Source: a bacterium
GTDB lineage: Bacteria > Patescibacteriota > Patescibacteriia > UBA1558 > GWA2-36-10
Reading direction: 5' to 3'
NCBI GenBank assembly: GCA_018653315.1
Contig: JABIAL010000021.1
Span: forward strand, 3,029-67,028
DNA: 64,000 bases
This document shows, piece by piece, positions 3,114 through 59,153 of this stretch. The number at the start of each line of letters is the position of its first letter. Positions within the stretch are counted from its first letter, which is position 1. Below the pieces are notes generated by a model. The model worked only from the letters and a program-made list of their open reading frames with translations, had not been told where the DNA came from and searched no databases. The position numbers were made by a program, and so were the translations under genes.

Positions 3114-3836
3114 TTAAGATTTTGTTTCGACAACTTCTACTTCTGGTTTCTTTTTCTTAAACCCTAGTACCATATATTGTTGGAAAACTGAGAACAAAGT
3201 AGTTAGCAACCAATAAAAAGTAAGTCCAGCTGGAAAACTTGCTCCGATAACAATGGTAATTATTGGCAAGAAATACATCATCTGATTAGTCATGGCAGCC
3301 GCTGGATTTTTAGCCTTACTCTTACTCATCATCATCTTAGATTGCCAAAACTGAGCTGCGCCAGCTAACACTGCTAGCACGATGCTTTTATCACTTAAGT
3401 TCAAAAAACCAAAAGCCATAATATCCAAAGATTGTGGATTGGCTACAAAAGTATATAATGAACTGCTATCAAAAATCGCTCCGTCTTTTAACTCATTGAA
3501 AAATACCCGATAAATCGCGAACAAAAAAGGAAGTTGAACCAACATTGGTAAACAAGATCCAAAGGGATTAATTTTTCTTTCTTTATATAGTGCCATTATT
3601 TCCGGCCCCATCTTTTCTTTATTGTCTTTGTATTTTTCTTTGATCGCTTCTATCTCTGGTTGAATGGTTTGTAAAGATTTTTGTGATCTAATTGCTTGTT
3701 TGGACAGGGGATACAAAATCAAACGAACAATGATAGTCAAAAAGACTATTGCTAGACCAAGATCTTGCCAGGCAATAGTATTGTATAAAAAAACTAATAA
3801 ATTAAAGATTGGTTGGTAAAAAATGGTAAAAAACAT
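3114..3836 (-). CDS. yidC: membrane protein insertase YidC (short form)
   Basis: 240 aa polytopic protein. Sits in the conserved rpmH-rnpA-yidD-yidC order, with characteristic C-terminal TM pattern and a basic tail. Confidence 0.85.
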   Translation of the reverse strand: MFFTIFYQPIFNLLVFLYNTIAWQDLGLAIVFLTIIVRLILYPLSKQAIRSQKSLQTIQPEIEAIKEKYKDNKEKMGPEIMALYKERKINPFGSCLPMLVQLPFLFAIYRVFFNELKDGAIFDSSSLYTFVANPQSLDIMAFGFLNLSDKSIVLAVLAGAAQFWQSKMMMSKSKAKNPAAAMTNQMMYFLPIITIVIGASFPAGLTFYWLLTTLFSVFQQYMVLGFKKKKPEVEVVETKS

Positions 3837-3890: not shown

Positions 3891-4163
3891 TTATAATAAA
3901 GGATCATCTCCACCCTTAGCCCAAGGATGACAACGAAAAATTCGTCGCATGCCCTTGAATCCTCCTTTAACTGCTCCATATTTTTCTATCGCTTGATAGG
4001 TATATTCAGAACAATGTGGTTTAAATCGGCAGTGCCCAAGTGGGTATTTATATTTAAACCAACCCATGTCTGGTGATAACGTGTGTTGGTATATCCGAAT
4101 CAGTACTAATAAAAAAATTCTTAGTGGTCTTTCTAAAAAATAATAAACCTCATTTACCCGCAT
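3891..4163 (-). CDS. yidD: membrane protein insertion efficiency factor YidD
   Basis: 90 aa. CRFxPxCSEY and HPWAKGGDDP motifs. Positioned between rnpA and yidC. Confidence 0.8.
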   Translation of the reverse strand: MRVNEVYYFLERPLRIFLLVLIRIYQHTLSPDMGWFKYKYPLGHCRFKPHCSEYTYQAIEKYGAVKGGFKGMRRIFRCHPWAKGGDDPLL

Positions 4164-4497
4164 AAACTCCTATTTTAGCTAATGCAAATTTAAACTGTTT
4201 AGTAATGGTAGCAAAGTCTAGTTCTAATGCCTTTTTTCTAGCAATAACCAAAATCGAATAACCATCCTTAATATCTGGTAATAAATCTTTAATTGCTTCT
4301 CGCATTTGTCTTTTAATGCGATTTCTAGCAACTGCTTTTTTATCTACCTTAGTAGAAACCACAAAAGCTATTTTACTTGGTTTTTCTTTGGTCTTTTGAT
4401 ATTTAATAATAAATTCAGGCAAAAAAAACGTCTGACCCTGACGGATCAAACTTTTTATTTCCGTTTCTTTATGTAATCTATAAGCTACTGGTAACAT
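4150..4497 (-). CDS. rnpA: ribonuclease P protein component
   Basis: 115 aa basic protein of RnpA type, located downstream of rpmH. Confidence 0.85.
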   Translation of the reverse strand: MLPVAYRLHKETEIKSLIRQGQTFFLPEFIIKYQKTKEKPSKIAFVVSTKVDKKAVARNRIKRQMREAIKDLLPDIKDGYSILVIARKKALELDFATITKQFKFALAKIGVYAGK

Positions 4498-4581
4498 AGC
4501 ACTTAAACTTAAAACCTTACTAACTAATAGCTTCGTAGTGAAGTTTTCATGTTTAGATAAATTTTATAATAAAAAACACCC

Positions 4582-4722
4582 TTAGACAGTAAGACTATCT
4601 CTCTTTTTGATACGACGTCTTTTTAGTATGTTGCGACCACCATTTGTTGCCATTCTTGCTCTAAAACCATGTGTTCTAGCTCTTTTTCTGGTTTTTGGTT
4701 GGTACGTTCTTTTAGTAGCCAT
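4582..4722 (-). CDS. rpmH: 50S ribosomal protein L34
   Basis: Not in the ORF track because it is under 60 aa. The minus strand translates to [46 protein letters not shown], a canonical L34. Confidence 0.85.
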
Positions 4723-4741
4723 GAATTTATTTATTATAATC

Positions 4742-4762
4742 CCTGCCTACCGGACAGGCAGG
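4742..4762. repeat. copy A of the palindromic repeat family (CCTGCCTaCCGGaCAGGCAGG)
   Basis: Inverted arms CCTGCCT/AGGCAGG around a CCGG core. Lies between the rpmH start and the dnaA upstream region. Confidence 0.6.
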
Positions 4763-4836
4763 CGCCTTCTAATGAGAAAAGTTAAATTGAACTGCTTTAA
4801 GATAACATGTTTTTATTATTTTGACAAGGCCAAACC

Positions 4837-4845
4837 TTGTCCACA
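4837..4845 (+). promoter_or_regulatory. DnaA-box-like 9-mer TTGTCCACA upstream of dnaA
   Basis: One mismatch to TTATCCACA. Lies in the AT-rich rpmH-dnaA spacer. Confidence 0.3.
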
Positions 4846-4955
4846 GTAACCCACATTTTATTAACACCTTATTAACTATTGACCCGTTTAAGTAAAACTA
4901 AATTTATGGTATATTGTATGATATTGATTAAAAAACTACCAAAAAATCATAAAAT

Positions 4956-6323
4956 ATGAGTAATCACGATAAAAATTGGCAAAGTGTGTTAGGAGAACTG
5001 GAGCTTTTAATTAGCCGGGCTAATTTTACAACCTGGTTCAAAAACACTTTTATTTTTGAAACCGGTGAAAAAGAAGTGATTATTGGTGTGCCAAATGCCT
5101 TTACTAAGGTTTGGCTGGAAAAGAAGTACCATAAAAACATCGTAAAAGCTTTAGGAAACGTGTTATCAAAAAGTAATCTACAGGTTATCTACAGGGTAGC
5201 AAACCAAGATAATTCAACTAATGTTAGCAAAAAAACAATAAATCCTGTTAAAATATCTGAGCCACCTGTGAATAACTTTAATGAAAACAGAAGCTCTAAT
5301 CGCTTTGGTCTAAACCCTAAATATACCTTTCAAAGCTTTATTGTTGGCCCCGGTAATGAACTGGCTCAGGCAGCCGCTCAGGCAGCCGCTAAAAAACCAG
5401 GTGAATTATACAACCCCTTATTTATTTACGGTGGTGTTGGCTTAGGTAAAACCCATTTAGTACAGGCTGTTGGAAACTATCTTTTAGCTAAGGATAGCAC
5501 AAAAAAAATATTATACATCAATAGTGAAAAGTTTACTAATGACTTTATTTATGCTATTAAAAATGGCCGTACCGAACAATTTAAACAAAATTATCGTGAA
5601 GTTGATGTCTTATTAATAGATGATATTCAATTTATCGCTGGAAAAGAGCAGACTCAGGAAGAATTTTTCCACACTTTTAATGCTTTACACCAAAATAACA
5701 AACAAATAGTCATTTCCTCAGATAGACCGCCAAAGGCTATTCCGGCTATTGAAAGTCGTTTAATTTCTCGTTTTGAGTGGGGAATGATAGCTGATATCTC
5801 TTTTCCTGATCTAGAAACAAGAATGGCTATTTTAGAGGTAAAGTGCCAAGAAAAAAACTGTGTTCTAGACGAAGATATCATTACTTATATTGCTAAAAGT
5901 ATTCAAGATAATATTAGAGAGCTAGAAGGGGCACTTAATAGAATTATTGCCTTTCATCAATTAAACAACACTAAACCAAGCCTTGAGAGCGTCCGTTCTA
6001 TTTTGGGTGGTATTTCTGCCAACCCAAAACGAGCCGGATTAACTGTTAAAAAATTACTGAGCATTGTAATTGACTTTTATGGTATTTCTTTAGATGATAT
6101 TTTAGGTAGCAGTAGAAAAAGAGAATTAGTCACCCCTCGTCAAATAGCGATGTTTTTAATGCGAGAAGAGCTTAAATCGTCTTATCCTAGCATTGGACAG
6201 GGTTTAGGGGGTAGAGACCACACCACGGCGATGCATGCTTGTATAAAAATAACAAAGATCATCGATGTTGATGAAAAAATAAAAAATGACGTGGCTGTTT
6301 TACGCCAAAAAATGTATGAATAA
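4956..6323 (+). CDS. dnaA: chromosomal replication initiator protein DnaA
   Basis: 455 aa. Walker A GGVGLGKTHL, AAA+ box, and the C-terminal DNA-binding domain signature. Confidence 0.95.
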   Translation: MSNHDKNWQSVLGELELLISRANFTTWFKNTFIFETGEKEVIIGVPNAFTKVWLEKKYHKNIVKALGNVLSKSNLQVIYRVANQDNSTNVSKKTINPVKISEPPVNNFNENRSSNRFGLNPKYTFQSFIVGPGNELAQAAAQAAAKKPGELYNPLFIYGGVGLGKTHLVQAVGNYLLAKDSTKKILYINSEKFTNDFIYAIKNGRTEQFKQNYREVDVLLIDDIQFIAGKEQTQEEFFHTFNALHQNNKQIVISSDRPPKAIPAIESRLISRFEWGMIADISFPDLETRMAILEVKCQEKNCVLDEDIITYIAKSIQDNIRELEGALNRIIAFHQLNNTKPSLESVRSILGGISANPKRAGLTVKKLLSIVIDFYGISLDDILGSSRKRELVTPRQIAMFLMREELKSSYPSIGQGLGGRDHTTAMHACIKITKIIDVDEKIKNDVAVLRQKMYE

Positions 6324-6593
6324 ATCCCCTTAATAAGCTGTTAATAAACACTGGATAGAAGCTAAGTGCTTTGTTAATAAATAACGACTTATCAACACAC
6401 TTTTTTCACAAAGCAAAACTTATTCACATTTTCAAAAACATAAACACCACTAATCAACCGTTTATCCCAAGTTAAAATTCATCGTTTTGAATAAAAAAGT
6501 TTAACAAAATTAAATAAAACCCCACACTTATTAACATATCAACAGGCCTTACTACTACTACTATTTATATATAAATAACTAATATATAATTAT

Positions 6594-7688
6594 ATGCACT
6601 TAAGTTGCACACAAGAAAATCTAAATAAAGGACTAGGACTGGTCTCACATATTGCCAATAAAAATAGCAACCTACCAATCTTAAATAATGTTCTCTTAAA
6701 AGCAGGTAAGAACGGCTTAACTTTAGTTACGACTGATCTAGAGATAGGGATTAAGGTTTTTGTTAGAAGCAAGGTAGAGGAAGAGGGTAGTTTTACAGTA
6801 GCTGCTAAACTATTAAATGAATTTATAGGTTTATTGCCAAGAGAAAATATAAATATAGCATTAAAAGAAGATAATCTTTATATTAAAAGCCAAAACCACA
6901 AAACCAATATTAAAGGATTAGAGGCCGAAGACTTTCCACTTATTCCAGAGATCGAAAAAGAAAATGAAGTTGAATTAAGTATTACAGAATTTAAAACAGC
7001 CCTAAGCCAAACCGTATTCGCCGCTTCTTTGGATGGTTCTCGAGCAGAAATCAACGCTGTTAACTTTTGTTTTTCCAAAGATGAACTAATAATGGCAGCC
7101 ACAGATAGTTATCGTTTAGCCGAAAAAAGATTAAGTATAAACAATAGTCAGGAGAAGTCGTTAATTATTCCACTGAAAACAATTCAGGAATTATTAAGAA
7201 TCCTAAACGACCAAGCAGAGCAGAAATTAAAGCTTTATTTTAATGAAAATCAAATCATGTTTGTTTTTGATGGGGTGGAATTAATTTCTCGTGTAGTAGA
7301 AGGGAAGTATCCAGACTATCAACAAATTATACCAAGTGATTTTAGCACTACTGCAAAATGTGAAACAAACAAGCTTATTCCTGCTATAAAATCCGCTGCT
7401 TTGTTTTGTAAACAGGGCATAAATGACGTTCGCTTAAGTTTTGCTAAAAATGAAATTGTAATTGCCTCTGCTTCTTCTGCTGTTGGTGAAAATGTTATTA
7501 AAGTGCCAGCTGAGGTTACCGGTGATGAGAACGACATTGTTTTTAACTTTAGATATTTATTAGATGGCCTAAGCAACATTGGCAAACAAGAGGTTGTGTT
7601 TAATATTAATAACAACGCCTCACCTGGTTTGTTACAAGGTAAAAATAATAAAAACTATCTTTATTTGATTATGCCAATTAGACAATAA
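6594..7688 (+). CDS. dnaN: DNA polymerase III beta sliding clamp
   Basis: 364 aa with three-domain clamp architecture. Located immediately downstream of dnaA. Confidence 0.9.
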   Translation: MHLSCTQENLNKGLGLVSHIANKNSNLPILNNVLLKAGKNGLTLVTTDLEIGIKVFVRSKVEEEGSFTVAAKLLNEFIGLLPRENINIALKEDNLYIKSQNHKTNIKGLEAEDFPLIPEIEKENEVELSITEFKTALSQTVFAASLDGSRAEINAVNFCFSKDELIMAATDSYRLAEKRLSINNSQEKSLIIPLKTIQELLRILNDQAEQKLKLYFNENQIMFVFDGVELISRVVEGKYPDYQQIIPSDFSTTAKCETNKLIPAIKSAALFCKQGINDVRLSFAKNEIVIASASSAVGENVIKVPAEVTGDENDIVFNFRYLLDGLSNIGKQEVVFNINNNASPGLLQGKNNKNYLYLIMPIRQ

Positions 7689-31340: not shown

Positions 31341-32702
31341 ATGCCTAGACTGCGAATTCTTACTATTATTTTATTTGGAGTGTTCATCATGACCACTGGT
31401 TTTGGTTGTAAGCAAAGCATTACCAATAAAGAAGAGTTTAAGCCAATTTCTTTAGAGTATTGGGGAGTTTGGGATACGCCGGGGCAGATGGCTAGTGTAA
31501 TCAATGCTTATCAGGACACCCATCCAACTATTAAGGTGAGATACAAAAATTTTCGTTATGATGAGTATGAACAAAAATTATTAGAAGCAGCCTGGGAAGA
31601 CAGAGTGCCTGATTTGTTCATGATCCCTGTTTCTTGGTTACCAAAATATCAAGAGCGTTTACAGGCAATTCCAAAAAGCGTTAAAATTCCTATTTTAGAA
31701 ATGCAGGGCACTATTAAAAAAGAAGCCGTGCCAGTGTTAAAAACTATTAATAGTTTATCTTTGCGTGATATTAAAGATCGTTATGTTAGTGTTGTTTATG
31801 ATAATGTAATTAGAGAAGGAGAAATTTACGGCTTACCATATTCTGTTGATTCATTGGTTACTTTTTATAATTCAGATTTATTAACAGCTTCAAATATTCC
31901 CGAACCAATAGAAGATTTTCATGATTTAGTTGAACAGATTCAAAAAGATGGTCTTTCTAAGATAGGGACTGGCAATAGAATTATACAGGCTGGTGTAGCC
32001 ATGGGTGGCACAGATAACATTCCTCGTTTTTTTGATATCTTGTCCAGTATTATGATGCAAAATGATGTTGAGCTGAAAGGGAGTAATTTTAATCCCTTAC
32101 AAAGTAAGGACTCAACACGGTACATGGCAGAGGCAATTGGTTTTTATACAGATTTTGCTAATCCTAATAAGTCAGTATTTTCTTGGGATGATAGTTTACC
32201 AGACGCCTTTGAAATATTTACACAAGGTAAGTTAGCTTATTTTTTTGGTTATAGTTATCATGCTGACGAATTACGTAAACGAGGCGTCCAGTTTGATTGG
32301 GATATAACTAATTTTCCTAAAACCAGAGGTGCAGAGGGTGATAAATATTATAGCAATTATTGGATAAACGTTGTTCCGAAAAAATCAAAAAATAAAGACG
32401 CAGCTTGGAATTTTATTCAAAGTGCAACTAGTAAAGATTTGGTGGTTAATTATTTAGATACTAATAAAAAACCAACAGCCTTAAGAGCCTTAATAAAAGA
32501 TCAGTTAGAAGATGATGAGGTGAGAGTTTTTGCTTCACAAGTTTTAGCCGCAGATAATTGGTACAAGGGTTATGATCTTACAGCAGCAGAAATGTATATG
32601 GCAGATTTTATAGAAGACCTATTATCAGGAGAGCTTAATCTTGATGAAAGTGGTTTAGGGTTTTTGGTTCAGCGCATTCGCCGTACCTATCAAGCACGAT
32701 AA
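31341..32702 (+). CDS. ABC-type extracellular solute-binding lipoprotein (family 1, sugar/oligosaccharide type), orphan
   Basis: 453 aa. Lipobox-like TTGFGC after a signal peptide. No permease or ATPase genes are adjacent. Confidence 0.55.
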   Translation: MPRLRILTIILFGVFIMTTGFGCKQSITNKEEFKPISLEYWGVWDTPGQMASVINAYQDTHPTIKVRYKNFRYDEYEQKLLEAAWEDRVPDLFMIPVSWLPKYQERLQAIPKSVKIPILEMQGTIKKEAVPVLKTINSLSLRDIKDRYVSVVYDNVIREGEIYGLPYSVDSLVTFYNSDLLTASNIPEPIEDFHDLVEQIQKDGLSKIGTGNRIIQAGVAMGGTDNIPRFFDILSSIMMQNDVELKGSNFNPLQSKDSTRYMAEAIGFYTDFANPNKSVFSWDDSLPDAFEIFTQGKLAYFFGYSYHADELRKRGVQFDWDITNFPKTRGAEGDKYYSNYWINVVPKKSKNKDAAWNFIQSATSKDLVVNYLDTNKKPTALRALIKDQLEDDEVRVFASQVLAADNWYKGYDLTAAEMYMADFIEDLLSGELNLDESGLGFLVQRIRRTYQAR

Positions 32703-32714
32703 TTTTTTAATAAT

Positions 32715-33677
32715 ATGAAAAAAGTATTAAACTTAGCAATTTTATTTTCTTTGTTAGCTATGCCAAGTATGGCTAGTGCTGGATTTTTGGATAAGTTAAG
32801 TTGCGTAAAAGGGGGGCTAAATTGTAGTCTTGATGAAGTAGCAACTAGTTTTGTTTTACTTACAAAATTTTTAATTAGCGCAATTGGTGTGGCAGCTCTA
32901 TTGTATTTTATTTGGGGTGGCGTCCAATTACTTACCTCTTATGGTAACATGGAAAGGATAAAGCGCGGACAACAAATAATGTGGCACACTATGTTTGCCA
33001 TGGTAATTACTTTTAGTAGTTTTTTATTAGTTGAATTTTTTATTAATGATATTTTAAATGCTGATGACCAGGTAGTTGCTATGTGCGGTACCGAGCCAAT
33101 ACACAAACAATGTAATGAGCATGAAAAAAATTATGTTTGCACTGGGCATCAATTTCCAATAGAGCAAGATGCTTACAATGGTTTATGTGTGCCAAAATGC
33201 CAATTACAAAATTGGCTAGAAGAAGATACTTGGTTGTGTCTTGATAAAAGTATCGCTGAAGATGTTGTTGGAGATGGTAAATTTGATGGTTGTTCAAATC
33301 CAAATGACCTATGTGTTAATGCAAATAAACTACCCATTAAAGAGTTAATTCAAGAGACTAATTCTTTAAATATTGATATTAATATAACTGAGTACGTTGG
33401 TTGTTGTGTGAATGGCATACAATCATGTATTACTAAAGAATCAGAAGTGGCTTGTCATAATCTTGATCCTAATGCTGCTTGGTTTAATGTTTCTTGTGAC
33501 GAGGTGGGAATGTGCCAAGATGGTTATCATGCTGATCCTGGTTGTTGCCTTGGTATTCAAGATGGTAATGTTGTAGAGTGTTTGGAAATAGAAATAGGGG
33601 TGTGTGCATGGGATGATGGTATAACAGCAGAATTTTATGCTGACACCACTTGTCCACCTGAACCGCCATGTTTATAA
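32715..33677 (+). CDS. VirB2/TrbC-like two-TM pilin-type domain fused to a ~200-aa Cys-rich extracytoplasmic domain
   Basis: 320 aa. Signal peptide and two TM helices with a GG-x-x-LL-TS-x-G loop resembling the four downstream paralogs, then more than 20 cysteines in the C-terminal 200 aa. Confidence 0.45.
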   Translation: MKKVLNLAILFSLLAMPSMASAGFLDKLSCVKGGLNCSLDEVATSFVLLTKFLISAIGVAALLYFIWGGVQLLTSYGNMERIKRGQQIMWHTMFAMVITFSSFLLVEFFINDILNADDQVVAMCGTEPIHKQCNEHEKNYVCTGHQFPIEQDAYNGLCVPKCQLQNWLEEDTWLCLDKSIAEDVVGDGKFDGCSNPNDLCVNANKLPIKELIQETNSLNIDINITEYVGCCVNGIQSCITKESEVACHNLDPNAAWFNVSCDEVGMCQDGYHADPGCCLGIQDGNVVECLEIEIGVCAWDDGITAEFYADTTCPPEPPCL

Positions 33678-33692
33678 TTTAATTCTTATAAT

Positions 33693-34043
33693 ATGTTAAA
33701 CAAAAAGAAAAATATTTTATTTACCTTGTTTTTATTGAGCGTACCTTGGTGTGTCCAAGCGGGCACGGCACTACATAATCCATTAGAGGGTAGTGCTAGT
33801 GATTTTCCAACATTAATTGGTGGTGTTATTAGAGGAATGTTGGGTGTAGTGGGGGCAGTAGCCTTAATTATGATTGTTATCGGAGGTATTACTTGGATGA
33901 CTTCATCTGGTAATGCTGATAGGGTACGCCGTGGCAAAGACACATTGGTTTGGGCGGTCATTGGTTTAACTGCTATATTTTTAAGTTACGCAGTTGTTAA
34001 TTTTATATTTGATGCCGTTGTTAGAGGTGGCTCAGGATCTTAG
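33693..34043 (+). CDS. VirB2/TrbC-like (T4SS-pilin-like) small two-TM protein, paralog 2
   Basis: 116 aa. Signal peptide, TM1, loop GGITWMTSSGNADRV, TM2. Confidence 0.5.
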   Translation: MLNKKKNILFTLFLLSVPWCVQAGTALHNPLEGSASDFPTLIGGVIRGMLGVVGAVALIMIVIGGITWMTSSGNADRVRRGKDTLVWAVIGLTAIFLSYAVVNFIFDAVVRGGSGS

Positions 34044-34559: not shown

Positions 34560-34904
34560 ATGAACAAAATAATTACAAGTTTATTATTACTAGCTCCGAT
34601 GGCCGCTTCAGCTGATCTTAGTGATCTTGGTTATGATGATTTAGATTCTGTACATTTGGGTACGCAAGATCTAAAGACAACTATTGCTAGTATTATTAAT
34701 GTAGTTTTAGGATTCTTAGGAATCATCGCTACTTTAATTATTCTTTTAGGTGGTTTTAAATGGATGACCTCTCAAGGTAGTACTGAAAAAGTAAGCGAAG
34801 CTAAAAATCTGATCGGCGCTGGTGTTGTAGGATTAGTCATAGTATTAGCAGCTTATGCTATTGCTAGATTTGTTTTACGAGAAGTTTATCAAGCAACTTA
34901 TTGA
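34560..34904 (+). CDS. VirB2/TrbC-like small two-TM protein, paralog 4 (near-identical recent duplicate of paralog 3)
   Basis: 114 aa, about 95 percent nucleotide identity to paralog 3 except for a ~50-nt segment encoding the mature N-terminus. Confidence 0.5.
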   Translation: MNKIITSLLLLAPMAASADLSDLGYDDLDSVHLGTQDLKTTIASIINVVLGFLGIIATLIILLGGFKWMTSQGSTEKVSEAKNLIGAGVVGLVIVLAAYAIARFVLREVYQATY

Positions 34905-34949: not shown

Positions 34950-35324
34950 ATGAAACATAAAATATTTTTTACATTTTTGTTATTATTACCAATGCAAGCA
35001 GCTGCGTCAGCAGCGCAGGATGGATTAGATGCTGCCGCTGCCCAGGCTGGACTTAATACTGATCGTAGTGTTATTGATATGATTGCCATTGTGATTAATG
35101 CAATTTTGAGCTTGTTAGCAATGATTTTTATTGTGTTGATTATCTTAGGTGGTTTTCGTTGGATGACTTCAGCTGGAAATGCTACAAAGGTAGATTCTGC
35201 TAAACAGACTATATCAAATGCAGTTATTGGTTTAGTAATAGTTGTGGCTGCTTATGCTATTGCTACATTTGTATTAGGAGCAGTAGTTGGTAGTACTAGT
35301 GGCGGTGGAGTTACACAACCTTAA
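34950..35324 (+). CDS. VirB2/TrbC-like small two-TM protein, paralog 5
   Basis: 124 aa. Loop GGFRWMTSAGNATKV and a Gly/Ser-rich C-terminus. Confidence 0.5.
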   Translation: MKHKIFFTFLLLLPMQAAASAAQDGLDAAAAQAGLNTDRSVIDMIAIVINAILSLLAMIFIVLIILGGFRWMTSAGNATKVDSAKQTISNAVIGLVIVVAAYAIATFVLGAVVGSTSGGGVTQP

Positions 35325-35344: not shown

Positions 35345-35376
35345 AACCCGCGTTTGTTTTCAAACGCGGGTTTTTG
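35345..35376. terminator. bidirectional rho-independent terminator
   Basis: AACCCGCGTTTG-tttt-CAAACGCGGGTT flanked by an A-run and a T-run. Separates the pilin-like array from the convergent lipoprotein gene. Confidence 0.7.
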
Positions 35377-35390
35377 ATTCTTAGAGACGA

Positions 35391-36038
35391 TTACTCGATG
35401 CTAATCACCCAATCAACGAGCCGCCCGTTTAACTCGGCATCCTTTTTAATGTTATTGATGCGAGTTACATATTTCATCTTCCGGTTTTGGGAAGCATTGA
35501 TTGGCTGGTAATAAATGGTGATATTACCAGGTGTCATAGCGGTCATCTCGCTAACCTGGCCGACATTCAGAACACCATATTGATGTCCTTTACTGTCCCA
35601 GATACGACACTTCCAGCGTGTCGAATTGATGATTACACCACTTTGCAACACTATGTTGCGTAATAGCATCTCATCAATCCTGACGACCTGTACACCACCC
35701 CATCTGGCGGTGCGCTTGATCGGTGCCACAATTTCTTCGCTACTCCAACCATTTTCCTCCCACGTTTTGACCAGAATAGTGATCTGATCTCTTCTGGCGA
35801 TTGATTCACTGTGAGAGCATCCTGTGTTGAGTTCCATATAATGCATTCCTGGTTCTTGTTTGATGCGCACCATATAGCGTTCATCTTCGCTGGTGTTTTC
35901 AAATCTCCACTCAGATTTTTTTTCATCATAGTCTTCTCCACCATGATAGGCGGGTCGGACTGTTCCGGCGCAATTACTCAAAATCAGCATCATTGCTAAT
36001 AATGAACAAAAAGCCACCATTTTTTTCAGCGTTTTCAT
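35391..36038 (-). CDS. lipoprotein, hypothetical (GC-richer than surroundings)
   Basis: 215 aa. Signal peptide with lipobox LSNCAG. No recognisable domain. The gene looks about 10 points GC-richer than its neighbours by eye. Confidence 0.45.
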   Translation of the reverse strand: MKTLKKMVAFCSLLAMMLILSNCAGTVRPAYHGGEDYDEKKSEWRFENTSEDERYMVRIKQEPGMHYMELNTGCSHSESIARRDQITILVKTWEENGWSSEEIVAPIKRTARWGGVQVVRIDEMLLRNIVLQSGVIINSTRWKCRIWDSKGHQYGVLNVGQVSEMTAMTPGNITIYYQPINASQNRKMKYVTRINNIKKDAELNGRLVDWVISIE

Positions 36039-58189: not shown

Positions 58190-58645
58190 TTAAAATACAG
58201 GAAGTACAATGTCACCGCAACCTGTGGATGGAGCACAAAGAATAAATTCACCAGGAGAGCTGTCTATGAGGTGAATTGACAGTACGTAATCTTGATTGGC
58301 GCTAGTTCCTACATTATTCCATTCCCAGCCATCGGCTGGTGGAGGCCAATTTTGCTCGCCACTGCAAATGGATTTATCAATTGCTGGTATTTTTGCTGGA
58401 CCACCGTCATACAAATCACAATCTGGGCAAAGCGCTTTGTCATCATATGCACATAAGATCAGAATAGGCTTAATGACGCTTACGATTTGTTTCATGGCTC
58501 CTCGTCTAGCTTTAGCTCTAGCTGAATTAACACCAATCACACCGACACTAGTAATAATACCAATGATAGCTATAACCACTAATAACTCAACCAGAGTGAA
58601 TCCTAATAAGTTTTTCTTTTTATTTTTATATTTCATATTAAGCAC
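58190..58645 (-). CDS. type IV pilin / pseudopilin with Cys-rich C-terminal domain
   Basis: 151 aa. Class III prepilin leader with cleavage motif LLGFTLVELLVVIAIIGI. Confidence 0.7.
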   Translation of the reverse strand: MLNMKYKNKKKNLLGFTLVELLVVIAIIGIITSVGVIGVNSARAKARRGAMKQIVSVIKPILILCAYDDKALCPDCDLYDGGPAKIPAIDKSICSGEQNWPPPADGWEWNNVGTSANQDYVLSIHLIDSSPGEFILCAPSTGCGDIVLPVF

Positions 58646-59153
58646 ATGTTCCAGTTACCTTACAGTTATTATTGCAGCAATCAAAATCTATTGAGCAAGC
58701 CTTGGTTGATCCAGCGCAAGCACAAGTTACATCTATTCCTTCTCCGCAATTAGATTCAGTGCAATATATATATTCGTCTGCGTCTGATTTTTTAATTTCA
58801 TAACAAAATTGACCAGTTTGATAAGTTGATTTTGATTTTTGATAAATATAATCATCAAAACTCGCCCAACGCCAACTGTTTAAAAAGTTCCAACACAAAT
58901 ATTCAGGAGGACCTGGTGTATTCGTGCCATTGCATTGTGTTCCAGCGCATTGTAATTCTGAATTACTATCTAAACAAAGCATGGCCATGGTCTGCATGTC
59001 TTTCATTTGAGTTACCACCTTGGTCTTTTCTGCTTTATCGATAGCTGAACGGACATTTATAACACTAACACTGGTCAGAATGCCAATAATGGCAATAACA
59101 ACTAGTAATTCTACTAGAGTGAAACCTAATAAGTTTGTATTTTTATTTTTCAT
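58638..59153 (-). CDS. type IV pilin with Cys-rich C-terminal domain
   Basis: 171 aa. Prepilin motif LLGFTLVELLVVIAIIGIL, and at least 15 Cys in the globular head. Confidence 0.7.
   Translation of the reverse strand: MKNKNTNLLGFTLVELLVVIAIIGILTSVSVINVRSAIDKAEKTKVVTQMKDMQTMAMLCLDSNSELQCAGTQCNGTNTPGPPEYLCWNFLNSWRWASFDDYIYQKSKSTYQTGQFCYEIKKSDADEYIYCTESNCGEGIDVTCACAGSTKACSIDFDCCNNNCKVTGTCA

Follow-up and report, generated by a model that had tools for sequence, protein, structure and literature searches.

We analysed a 64-kb stretch of contig JABIAL010000021.1, taken at its full length as the window, a low-GC (about 33%) chromosome segment that carries an array of genes for VirB2-like pilins. 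The first gene of this array, an open reading frame (ORF) with an ATG start, encodes 320 aa before its stop, in which a pilin module is followed by a cysteine-rich C-terminal domain of 206 aa (residues 115-320). We refer to this domain as the head and to the whole protein as the headed pilin. The locus is composed of the following elements:

31341..32702 (+): carbohydrate-type solute-binding protein (SBP), SBP_bac_1 by Pfam, with weak MalE/GanS-like NCBIfam matches
32715..33677 (+): headed VirB2-like pilin, 320 aa, 22 Cys (ORF, Pfam, homologues, hhalign)
33693..34043 (+): small VirB2-like pilin 1, 116 aa, PF18895 at 42.5 bits
34115..34462 (+): small VirB2-like pilin 2, 115 aa, above the PF18895 and TrbC cutoffs
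34560..34904 (+): small VirB2-like pilin 3, 114 aa, 85% identical to pilin 2
34950..35324 (+): small VirB2-like pilin 4, 124 aa, PF18895
35345..35372 (no strand): GC-rich 12-bp hairpin downstream of the last pilin gene, before the convergent ORF, found in the sequence
35391..36038 (-): convergent ORF of 215 aa with a lipoprotein-like N-terminus (LSNC motif, by eye), no Pfam or NCBIfam family

All four small pilins exceed the gathering score of PF18895 (T4SS_pilin, the pilin family of type IV secretion systems, T4SS), and two of the four also match TrbC/VirB2. The headed pilin precedes them, as the first-pass annotation had stated, and in every related locus that reaches upstream the pilin gene next to the SBP gene is likewise the headed one. 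In all these loci (L001, L003, L005-L008, L010, L012, L016 and L017) the SBP gene is the immediate upstream neighbour of the pilin gene, the SBP stop and the pilin start being separated by 7-12 nt or overlapping by 4-8 nt. Where the flanks are long enough, the gene order is NTP-transferase, SBP_bac_1 lipoprotein, headed pilin, three or four small pilins, convergent ORF, and DUF2079 and/or yebC-ruvC.

The headed pilin is a genuine, conserved VirB2-like pilin paralogue and the first of its operon. A first homologue search returned one 98%-identical copy, full-length relatives at 39-45% identity and two shorter ones, and further searches extended the family to about 35 cluster representatives, at 25-64% identity. 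The relatives come from metagenome-assembled genomes (MAGs) of 'Candidatus Nomurabacteria' and 'Parcubacteria', which marks the window as part of a Patescibacteria genome. When one genome was scanned for each of 185,579 species, full relatives turned up in only about six of them. All database copies are annotated as 'hypothetical protein'. The gene could have been an artefact or a pseudogene fusion, with translation of a small pilin gene running on into sequence that is non-coding or frameshifted. This explanation is excluded: in the full-length orthologues from independent MAGs, at 39-48% identity, every cysteine is aligned, the head profile recovers only the headed-pilin family, and the predicted fold is confident. 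The cysteines of the relatives stay in frame at 25-47% identity with all spacings kept, and it is this conservation over about 35 relatives that shows the gene to be real. The loss or frameshifting of the Cys-rich region in relatives, which the first-pass annotation had named as a finding against its idea, is not observed.

Cysteine makes up 6.9% of the headed pilin, compared with 0.65% across the window's 44 ORFs that reach 150 aa or more. The residues are at positions 30, 37, 124, 133, 142, 158, 162, 175, 193, 200, 230, 231, 238, 247, 261, 267, 277, 278, 289, 297, 313 and 319. The first-pass annotation had placed about 22 cysteines in the C-terminal domain; this is the count for the whole protein, of which 20 fall within residues 124-319, while C30 and C37 form a conserved pair directly after the signal peptide. 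The two peptides that it quoted, VGCCVNGIQSC and DPGCCLGIQDG, are present in the ORF. Among the spacings it listed, CC occurs twice and CxxxC once, and CxC does not occur in the protein.

The pilin module and its orientation

The protein was divided into the segments below. The layout relies on Kyte-Doolittle hydropathy and a charge count, which is a simple calculation and not a dedicated topology predictor, together with alignments and, for the head, AlphaFold2 (AF2) models:

32715..32780 (+): Sec-type signal peptide, aa 1-22 (MKK...MPSMASA, then GFLD), by hydropathy and alignment
32781..32846 (+): mature N-terminal exposed segment, aa 23-44, by alignment
32847..33053 (+): pilin hairpin with helix 1 (aa 45-74), basic loop SYGNMERIKRGQQ (aa 75-88) and helix 2 (aa 89-113), by hydropathy and homology to the PF18895/TrbC neighbours
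33057..33344 (+): head module 1, aa 115-210, 8 conserved Cys, predicted alpha/beta fold, by alignment and AF2
33345..33392 (+): variable linker, aa 211-226, with a confidence score (pLDDT) below 50 and a length that differs among relatives
33393..33533 (+): head module 2, repeat a, aa 227-273, GCC-x6-C-x8-C-x13-C-x5-C, by spacing table and profiles
33534..33674 (+): head module 2, repeat b, aa 274-320, GCC-x10-C-x7-C-x15-C-x5-C, by spacing table and profiles

The N-terminal part presents the layout of PF18895/TrbC proteins, with a cleavable A-x-A signal peptide, two hydrophobic helices and a short basic loop. In the signal peptide P17 is invariant across the family and A22 nearly so, and the subfamily signature GFLDxLxCxxxGxCxLxDV follows, in which the C30/C37 pair is invariant. 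When a profile of 19 family N-terminal modules was compared with one of 15 small neighbour pilins, hhalign gave a probability of 99.5% with E 1.6e-22 over 107 columns, which confirms the claim that the first gene has the same module as its small neighbours. The loop motif W-x-T-S-x-G-N-x-(E/D)-(K/R)-(V/I) is also common to headed and small pilins. The small single-domain form is a precursor of about 100-130 aa, and the headed pilin departs from it by the 206 aa added after helix 2; this extra size is a departure from the PF18895/TrbC family and no grounds against homology.

With VirB2, TrbC and TraA of the T-pilus, RP4 and the F-pilus, the headed pilin has in common the signal peptide, the two hydrophobic helices, the basic loop and the placement of the termini outside. 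It differs from them by its head, since those pilins measure about 65-80 aa when mature, are often cyclised or trimmed at the C-terminus and have no extra domain. No VirB2 chain of the PDB was a significant sequence match to the headed pilin (E 8). The Mbov_0395 pilin-like family of Mycoplasma integrative and conjugative elements (ICEs; NF045849) is matched by the small neighbours at E 1e-8 to 1e-9, although these matches stay below its curated cutoff (34-37 versus 40 bits); the headed pilin itself reaches only E 0.055, and the model has 80 positions and no head domain. A type IV pilin signature was not found, as Pfam N_methyl did not match the headed pilin, and the GFLDK sequence at the cleavage site lacks the E5 of type IV pilins and continues into a polar Cys loop.

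In VirB2/TraA pilins both termini are outside and the loop faces the cytoplasm or the lumen; the F- and T-pilus structures have the two termini exposed on the outside and the loop bordering the lumen. Moreover, C-terminal fusions to F-pilin are displayed on the pilus. The loop between the helices of the headed pilin contains 3 K/R. The head has 36 D/E and 8 K/R (net charge -28) with no Arg, and heads are acidic in nearly all family members. By the positive-inside rule, a basic loop, an acidic head and a cleavable signal peptide would place the head outside the membrane, in agreement with the VirB2/TraA precedent. A cytoplasmic location of the Cys-rich region, which had been named as a finding that would speak against an extracytoplasmic head, is not what the charge distribution indicates.

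The head and its modules

The head starts about 10 residues past helix 2. In module 1 the spacing is C-x8-C-x8-C-x15-C-x3-C-x12-C-x17-C-x6-C in the window protein and C-x8-C-x5..9-C-x11..16-C-x3-C-x12..15-C-x15..23-C-x5..7-C in the family, and module 2 has the family spacing CC-x6..12-C-x4..8-C-x8..13-C-x5-C twice. Across the family the cysteine spacings are almost invariant. Profile-to-profile alignment of repeat a with repeat b gave E 2.8e-4 with the six cysteines all in register. In the single sequence the internal repeat is weak (16 of 500 shuffles reach its score), and it is the family profiles, the spacing table and a relative with one repeat that make it convincing. Relative P0001, 98% identical, lacks 6 aa of the linker (IKELIQE region) as its main difference from the window protein, which, together with the low pLDDT there, is consistent with a flexible spacer.

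Compared with nine full-length relatives, identity is 48-64% in the mature pilin module and 32-47% in the head, the latter falling to 25-41% when the Cys columns are removed. The head scaffold is therefore fixed while its surface can vary, as is typical of extracellular disulfide domains.

The AF2 model of the head has a mean pLDDT of 80, with about 90 in module 1. The head had no match in Pfam, NCBIfam, PHROG, PDB sequences or Foldseek, and its modules appear to be new folds. Searching 1.84 billion representatives with the head profile gave 20 proteins at E<=1e-3, about 18 of which have the match beginning directly after a pilin module, at residue 95-152. The two others are a spurious repeat protein (P0019) and a 143-aa protein that lacks the pilin module and begins inside module 1 (P0020), apparently a truncated ORF. 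The head is thus essentially restricted to a position behind a VirB2-like pilin module.

Several forms of the head occupy the same locus in different genomes. Module 1 only is the commonest, and module 1 with two repeats is found in the window protein and eight or so others. There are also two repeats without module 1 (P0016), one repeat alone (L012), and half of module 1, with only C1-C4 in P0040 and only C5-C8 in P0036, which suggests that module 1 is made of two 4-Cys halves. Assembly GCA_964638415.1 (L016, 8001..10039) carries two headed paralogues in tandem: P0007 (317 aa) with module 1 and two 6-Cys repeats, and P0011 (358 aa), where module 1 is followed by some 140 aa of unrelated sequence, a distal domain in which both Cys and His occur. 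This distal domain has no family in Pfam, PDB or PHROG. Its motifs SCHYGG...AVD and DHVHAS (SxHxxG...D, HVH) are taken by us to recall LAS/M15 peptidases, a resemblance that is unconfirmed and to which the searches gave no support.

The even number of cysteines in each module and the gain and loss of whole modules point to disulfides, and we infer from these sequence patterns that the cysteines are probably paired. Instead, they could ligate metals (Zn, Fe or Cu clusters), and the head would then be an extracellular metal-binding or redox module. The CC and CxxxC motifs and the very acidic composition would suit this explanation, the Cys count alone is not discriminating, and oxidative folding is less obvious in anoxic groundwater, the habitat of many Patescibacteria. 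Against it, the numbers are even in every module (8, 6, 6 and 2), and gain or loss affects entire units of 4, 6 or 8 Cys. Furthermore, His accounts for only 5 of 206 residues, CxxCH and CxxC pairs are absent, and AF2 builds a compact fold without cofactors. In addition, an MdbA-like thiol-disulfide oxidoreductase, often adjoining VKOR, is enriched in the candidate phyla radiation (CPR; PMC6744442), which makes extracellular disulfides plausible. Taken together, metal ligation is less likely and we give it little weight.

The restriction of the head to pilin genes also bears on whether it could be a pro-domain or a secreted cargo, cleaved from the pilin and then discarded or released as a soluble Cys-rich factor (a toxin, a signal or a binding protein). 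C-terminal processing is known for TrbC/VirB2 pilins, for example RP4 TrbC, and a floppy segment lies between helix 2 and the first head cysteine. However, the alignments, read by eye, contain no conserved cleavage motif between helix 2 and C124, and the processed extensions that are known are short (tens of residues) and not folded 200-aa multi-module domains. No stand-alone head gene was found either, P0020 being the sole pilin-less match. Release of the head by cleavage is therefore less likely as well, and seems to us quite improbable.

Proposed role and placement in a filament

The explanation that we favour, with a probability of roughly 0.45, is that the headed pilin is a specialised minor VirB2-like pilin through which a T4SS-type filament carries a disulfide-stabilised head that serves host contact. 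After Sec export and cleavage of the signal peptide, the two hydrophobic helices would form a membrane hairpin, with the basic loop toward the cytoplasm and both termini outside. The C-terminus would run, after about 10 residues, into the 206-aa acidic head, consisting of the 8-Cys proximal module, a flexible linker and the two 6-Cys repeats, most likely with up to 10 disulfides and possibly an eleventh in the N-terminal segment. The small pilins of the operon would polymerise into a T4SS-type filament or conduit. Through its well-conserved hairpin the headed pilin may enter the same polymer, in small numbers and most plausibly as the first, distal subunit. The head would then be displayed at the outside or tip of the filament, where module 1 could serve as a constant stalk and the variable distal modules as an exchangeable, fast-evolving business end that contacts the host cell surface.

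The first-pass annotation had gone in the same direction, proposing a disulfide-knotted extracytoplasmic head on a minor tip or adhesin subunit. The outside location agrees with the charge distribution; a Foldseek search with the head model matched no knottin, and the disulfides, a knotted fold, entry into a filament, the tip position and the adhesin function are retained here only as conditional proposals.

Several observations weigh against the favoured explanation. The headed pilin alone scores 16.4 bits on PF18895 (E 0.0097), below the 26.6-bit Pfam gathering score, which is exceeded by orthologues P0016 (32.5 bits) and P0023 (32.6 bits); precomputed PF18895 matches also exist for P0002-P0005. 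Foldseek with the pilin part was non-discriminating, the conjugative pilin 8dfu being reached only at E 3.4. The genes for VirB4, VirB6, VirB3 and VirD4 are absent from the window, and T4SS machinery genes are likewise absent from the flanks (up to 10 kb per side) of nine related loci, so that a T4SS in the source organism is unproven. No adhesin, lectin or toxin fold matched the head. A filament of PF18895 proteins has been reported from no Patescibacterium, and the only solved CPR pili (Pam) are unrelated Ig-like donor-strand filaments (bioRxiv 10.64898/2026.03.03.709456). Finally, this evidence does not separate a tip from a lateral or a basal position.

Recognition of a VirB2 fold for the N-terminal module by structure was also tried and discarded, as the full-length AF2 model is poor (pLDDT 53) and its Foldseek matches are generic helical hairpins.

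The absence of T4SS machinery near the locus would suit an alternative in which the pilin-like hairpin is a membrane anchor only, without polymerisation, and the head acts at the cell surface, for example as a wall-spanning stalk, as a receptor or as a partner of the co-transcribed solute-binding lipoprotein. The tight coupling to the SBP gene and the short distance between helix 2 and the head also suit a membrane-anchored surface protein, which is the main rival, although in our opinion an unlikely one. Conservation is higher in the pilin module than in the head, and the loop motif of the small pilins is retained there, which a mere anchor would not need. Moreover, the headed gene is always accompanied by three or four small pilins.

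The headed pilin could also occur all along the filament, or be its major subunit, in a bottle-brush fibre with a coat of acidic Cys-rich domains. A rough estimate from published F/T-pilus parameters leaves room on the outer surface for a radial 10-kDa module 1, and the display of C-terminal F-pilin fusions is lateral. In contrast, four headless paralogues are kept in the same operon, a 206-aa head on every subunit would mean crowding, and the head architecture differs between close relatives while the small pilins are constant. Such lateral decoration is therefore less likely, and we regard it as improbable. A minority subunit, most simply the distal one, is what we infer for the headed pilin.

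The idea of a pilin subunit enlarged by an extra domain has a precedent in GspK and other headed minor pilins of type II secretion systems and type IV pili, where the extra domain fits only the filament tip and primes assembly. These are type IV prepilins with an N-methylated single helix, a different pilin class. TraN of the F plasmid, a cysteine-rich mating-pair-stabilisation adhesin with 22 conserved Cys, is comparable by analogy only, as a T4SS-associated extracytoplasmic cysteine-rich surface protein for cell-cell contact. It differs in being an outer-membrane protein of about 600 aa without a pilin module, and Pfam TraN did not match the headed pilin at E<=0.1. The likeness to VirB5/TraC/CagL is limited to the proposed role, that of a minor pilus-tip component which nucleates assembly and contacts the target cell (PMC12857230). 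In contrast to the headed pilin these proteins are soluble helical bundles, with neither the pilin hairpin nor the Cys-rich fold, and no VirB5/TraC homology was found by Pfam at E<=0.1 or by fold.

The closest known systems are the VirB2-like arrays of Patescibacteria, which have been proposed to form a pilus (PMC10633639, PMC12857230, PMC12102498). A six-gene array inside a T4SS cluster is essential for epibiotic growth in 'Ca. Southlakia epibionticum', the single species tested (Wang et al. 2023, PMC10633639). In 3,035 surveyed genomes there were 441 arrays, each of 2-11 pilins that share about 25% identity within the array; among 1,948 VirB4-containing assemblies with such pilins, the pilins were near virB4 in 1,135 and away from it in 813 (Quinonero-Coronel et al. 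2025, PMC12102498). A 2025 review called the possibility of a monoderm T4SS pilus 'intriguing' (PMC12857230). The window array resembles these in its pilin module, its tandem divergent paralogues, its chromosomal, origin-proximal location and its monoderm host. It differs in not being beside virB4 and in its coupling to an SBP gene. The described members are small, 'structurally conserved, sequence-divergent', and none has been reported with a folded C-terminal domain. The literature searched on these arrays (PMC10633639, PMC12102498, PMC12857230) makes no mention of a pilin with an extra domain, full-text searches brought up no further description, and this, like the database annotations, agrees with the initial remark that a VirB2-like pilin fused to a Cys-rich domain is an undescribed architecture.

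VirB2-class pilins are regarded as minimal two-helix subunits, with recognition assigned to separate proteins (VirB5, TraN, PrgB), and one with a swappable head is unexpected. No PrgB-type adhesin was detected in the 3,035 Patescibacteria genomes (PMC12102498), and VirB5 is reported not to be found in Gram-positive T4SSs (PMC12857230). A pilin with its own folded, fast-evolving and module-swapping head would therefore fill this gap in at least one clade. Headed pilins may be the means by which these ultra-small bacteria touch their hosts. The roughly 90-aa and roughly 45-aa disulfide domains should be expressible for binding screens and offer a tractable handle on what Patescibacteria filaments touch and why ultra-small bacteria keep them. 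It should be noted that the family is narrow, with head modules confined to a handful of uncultured genomes. In a more ambitious version, which we consider doubtful, a T4SS-type pilus of Paceibacteria/Parcubacteria would have the headed pilin as its receptor-binding tip subunit. The constant 8-Cys stalk would then bear exchangeable distal modules that set host specificity, either 6-Cys repeats or, in a tandem paralogue, the unrelated 140-aa domain, and together with the translationally coupled SBP the headed pilin would form a host-tapping apparatus for nutrient acquisition. In that case it would be the first VirB2-class pilin that evolved into a modular adhesin, from new disulfide-rich folds.

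Neighbouring genes and other pilins

The array lies about 27 kb from dnaA. The origin gene set is at window 4150..7688, and the cumulative GC skew climbs from about 6 kb onwards. It consists of rnpA (-), dnaA and dnaN, and yidC is given with them:

3114..3836 (-): yidC
4956..6323: dnaA
6594..7688: dnaN

Other genes of the window are rpoB/rpoC, ftsK, recA, polA, glycogen genes and five tRNAs. In many Paceibacteria virB4 is found near dnaA (PMC12102498); here it is missing from the 5 kb to the left of dnaA and from the 58 kb to its right, and the sole FtsK-like ATPase of the window has the full FtsK architecture.

The SBP has a GFGC motif which, read by eye, resembles a lipoprotein lipobox, and neither an ABC permease nor an ATPase for it was found in the window. 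The SBP is translationally coupled to the VirB2-like pilins. Small pilins 2 and 3 are identical at 98 of 115 positions, including the signal peptide and both helices, and 14 of the 17 differences are in the mature N-terminal segment or the C-terminal tail. This looks like a recent duplication with diversification of the parts that would be expected on the filament surface. The promoter scan gave a number of sites not above chance, and the hairpin at 35345..35372 is likely the end of the transcription unit. The convergent ORF is kept directly after the array, at 203-240 aa, in all related loci that reach that far, and it may be part of the same functional unit as the pilins.

One related locus (L007, CAZXZY010000004.1) is labelled 'uncultured Gammaproteobacteria bacterium'. 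It is syntenic gene for gene with the Parcubacteria/Nomurabacteria loci and encodes a protein that differs from P0002 by one residue, and the bin is probably mislabelled or contaminated.

The window also encodes, at 58638..59153 (-), a type IV pilin of 171 aa (Pfam N_methyl, LLGFTLVELL) with 14 Cys (8.2%), ending in CACAGSTKACSIDFDCCNNNCKVTGTCA. Considering this protein and the headed pilin, Cys-rich heads, extracellular by prediction, would thus be present in two pilus systems of the source organism. A domain common to both was sought with hhalign, which found no relationship.

Among the PF18895 pilins of unrelated Patescibacteria, P0037, P0042 and P0044 have N-terminal extracellular extensions, and P0040 is extended at both ends, with Cys pairs at each. 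The extension of P0042 has about 100 aa and several Cys (CDLCGYCPP...), and that of P0044 is rich in Thr/Ser. These proteins suggest that 'decorated' VirB2-like pilins may reach beyond the clade of the headed pilin.

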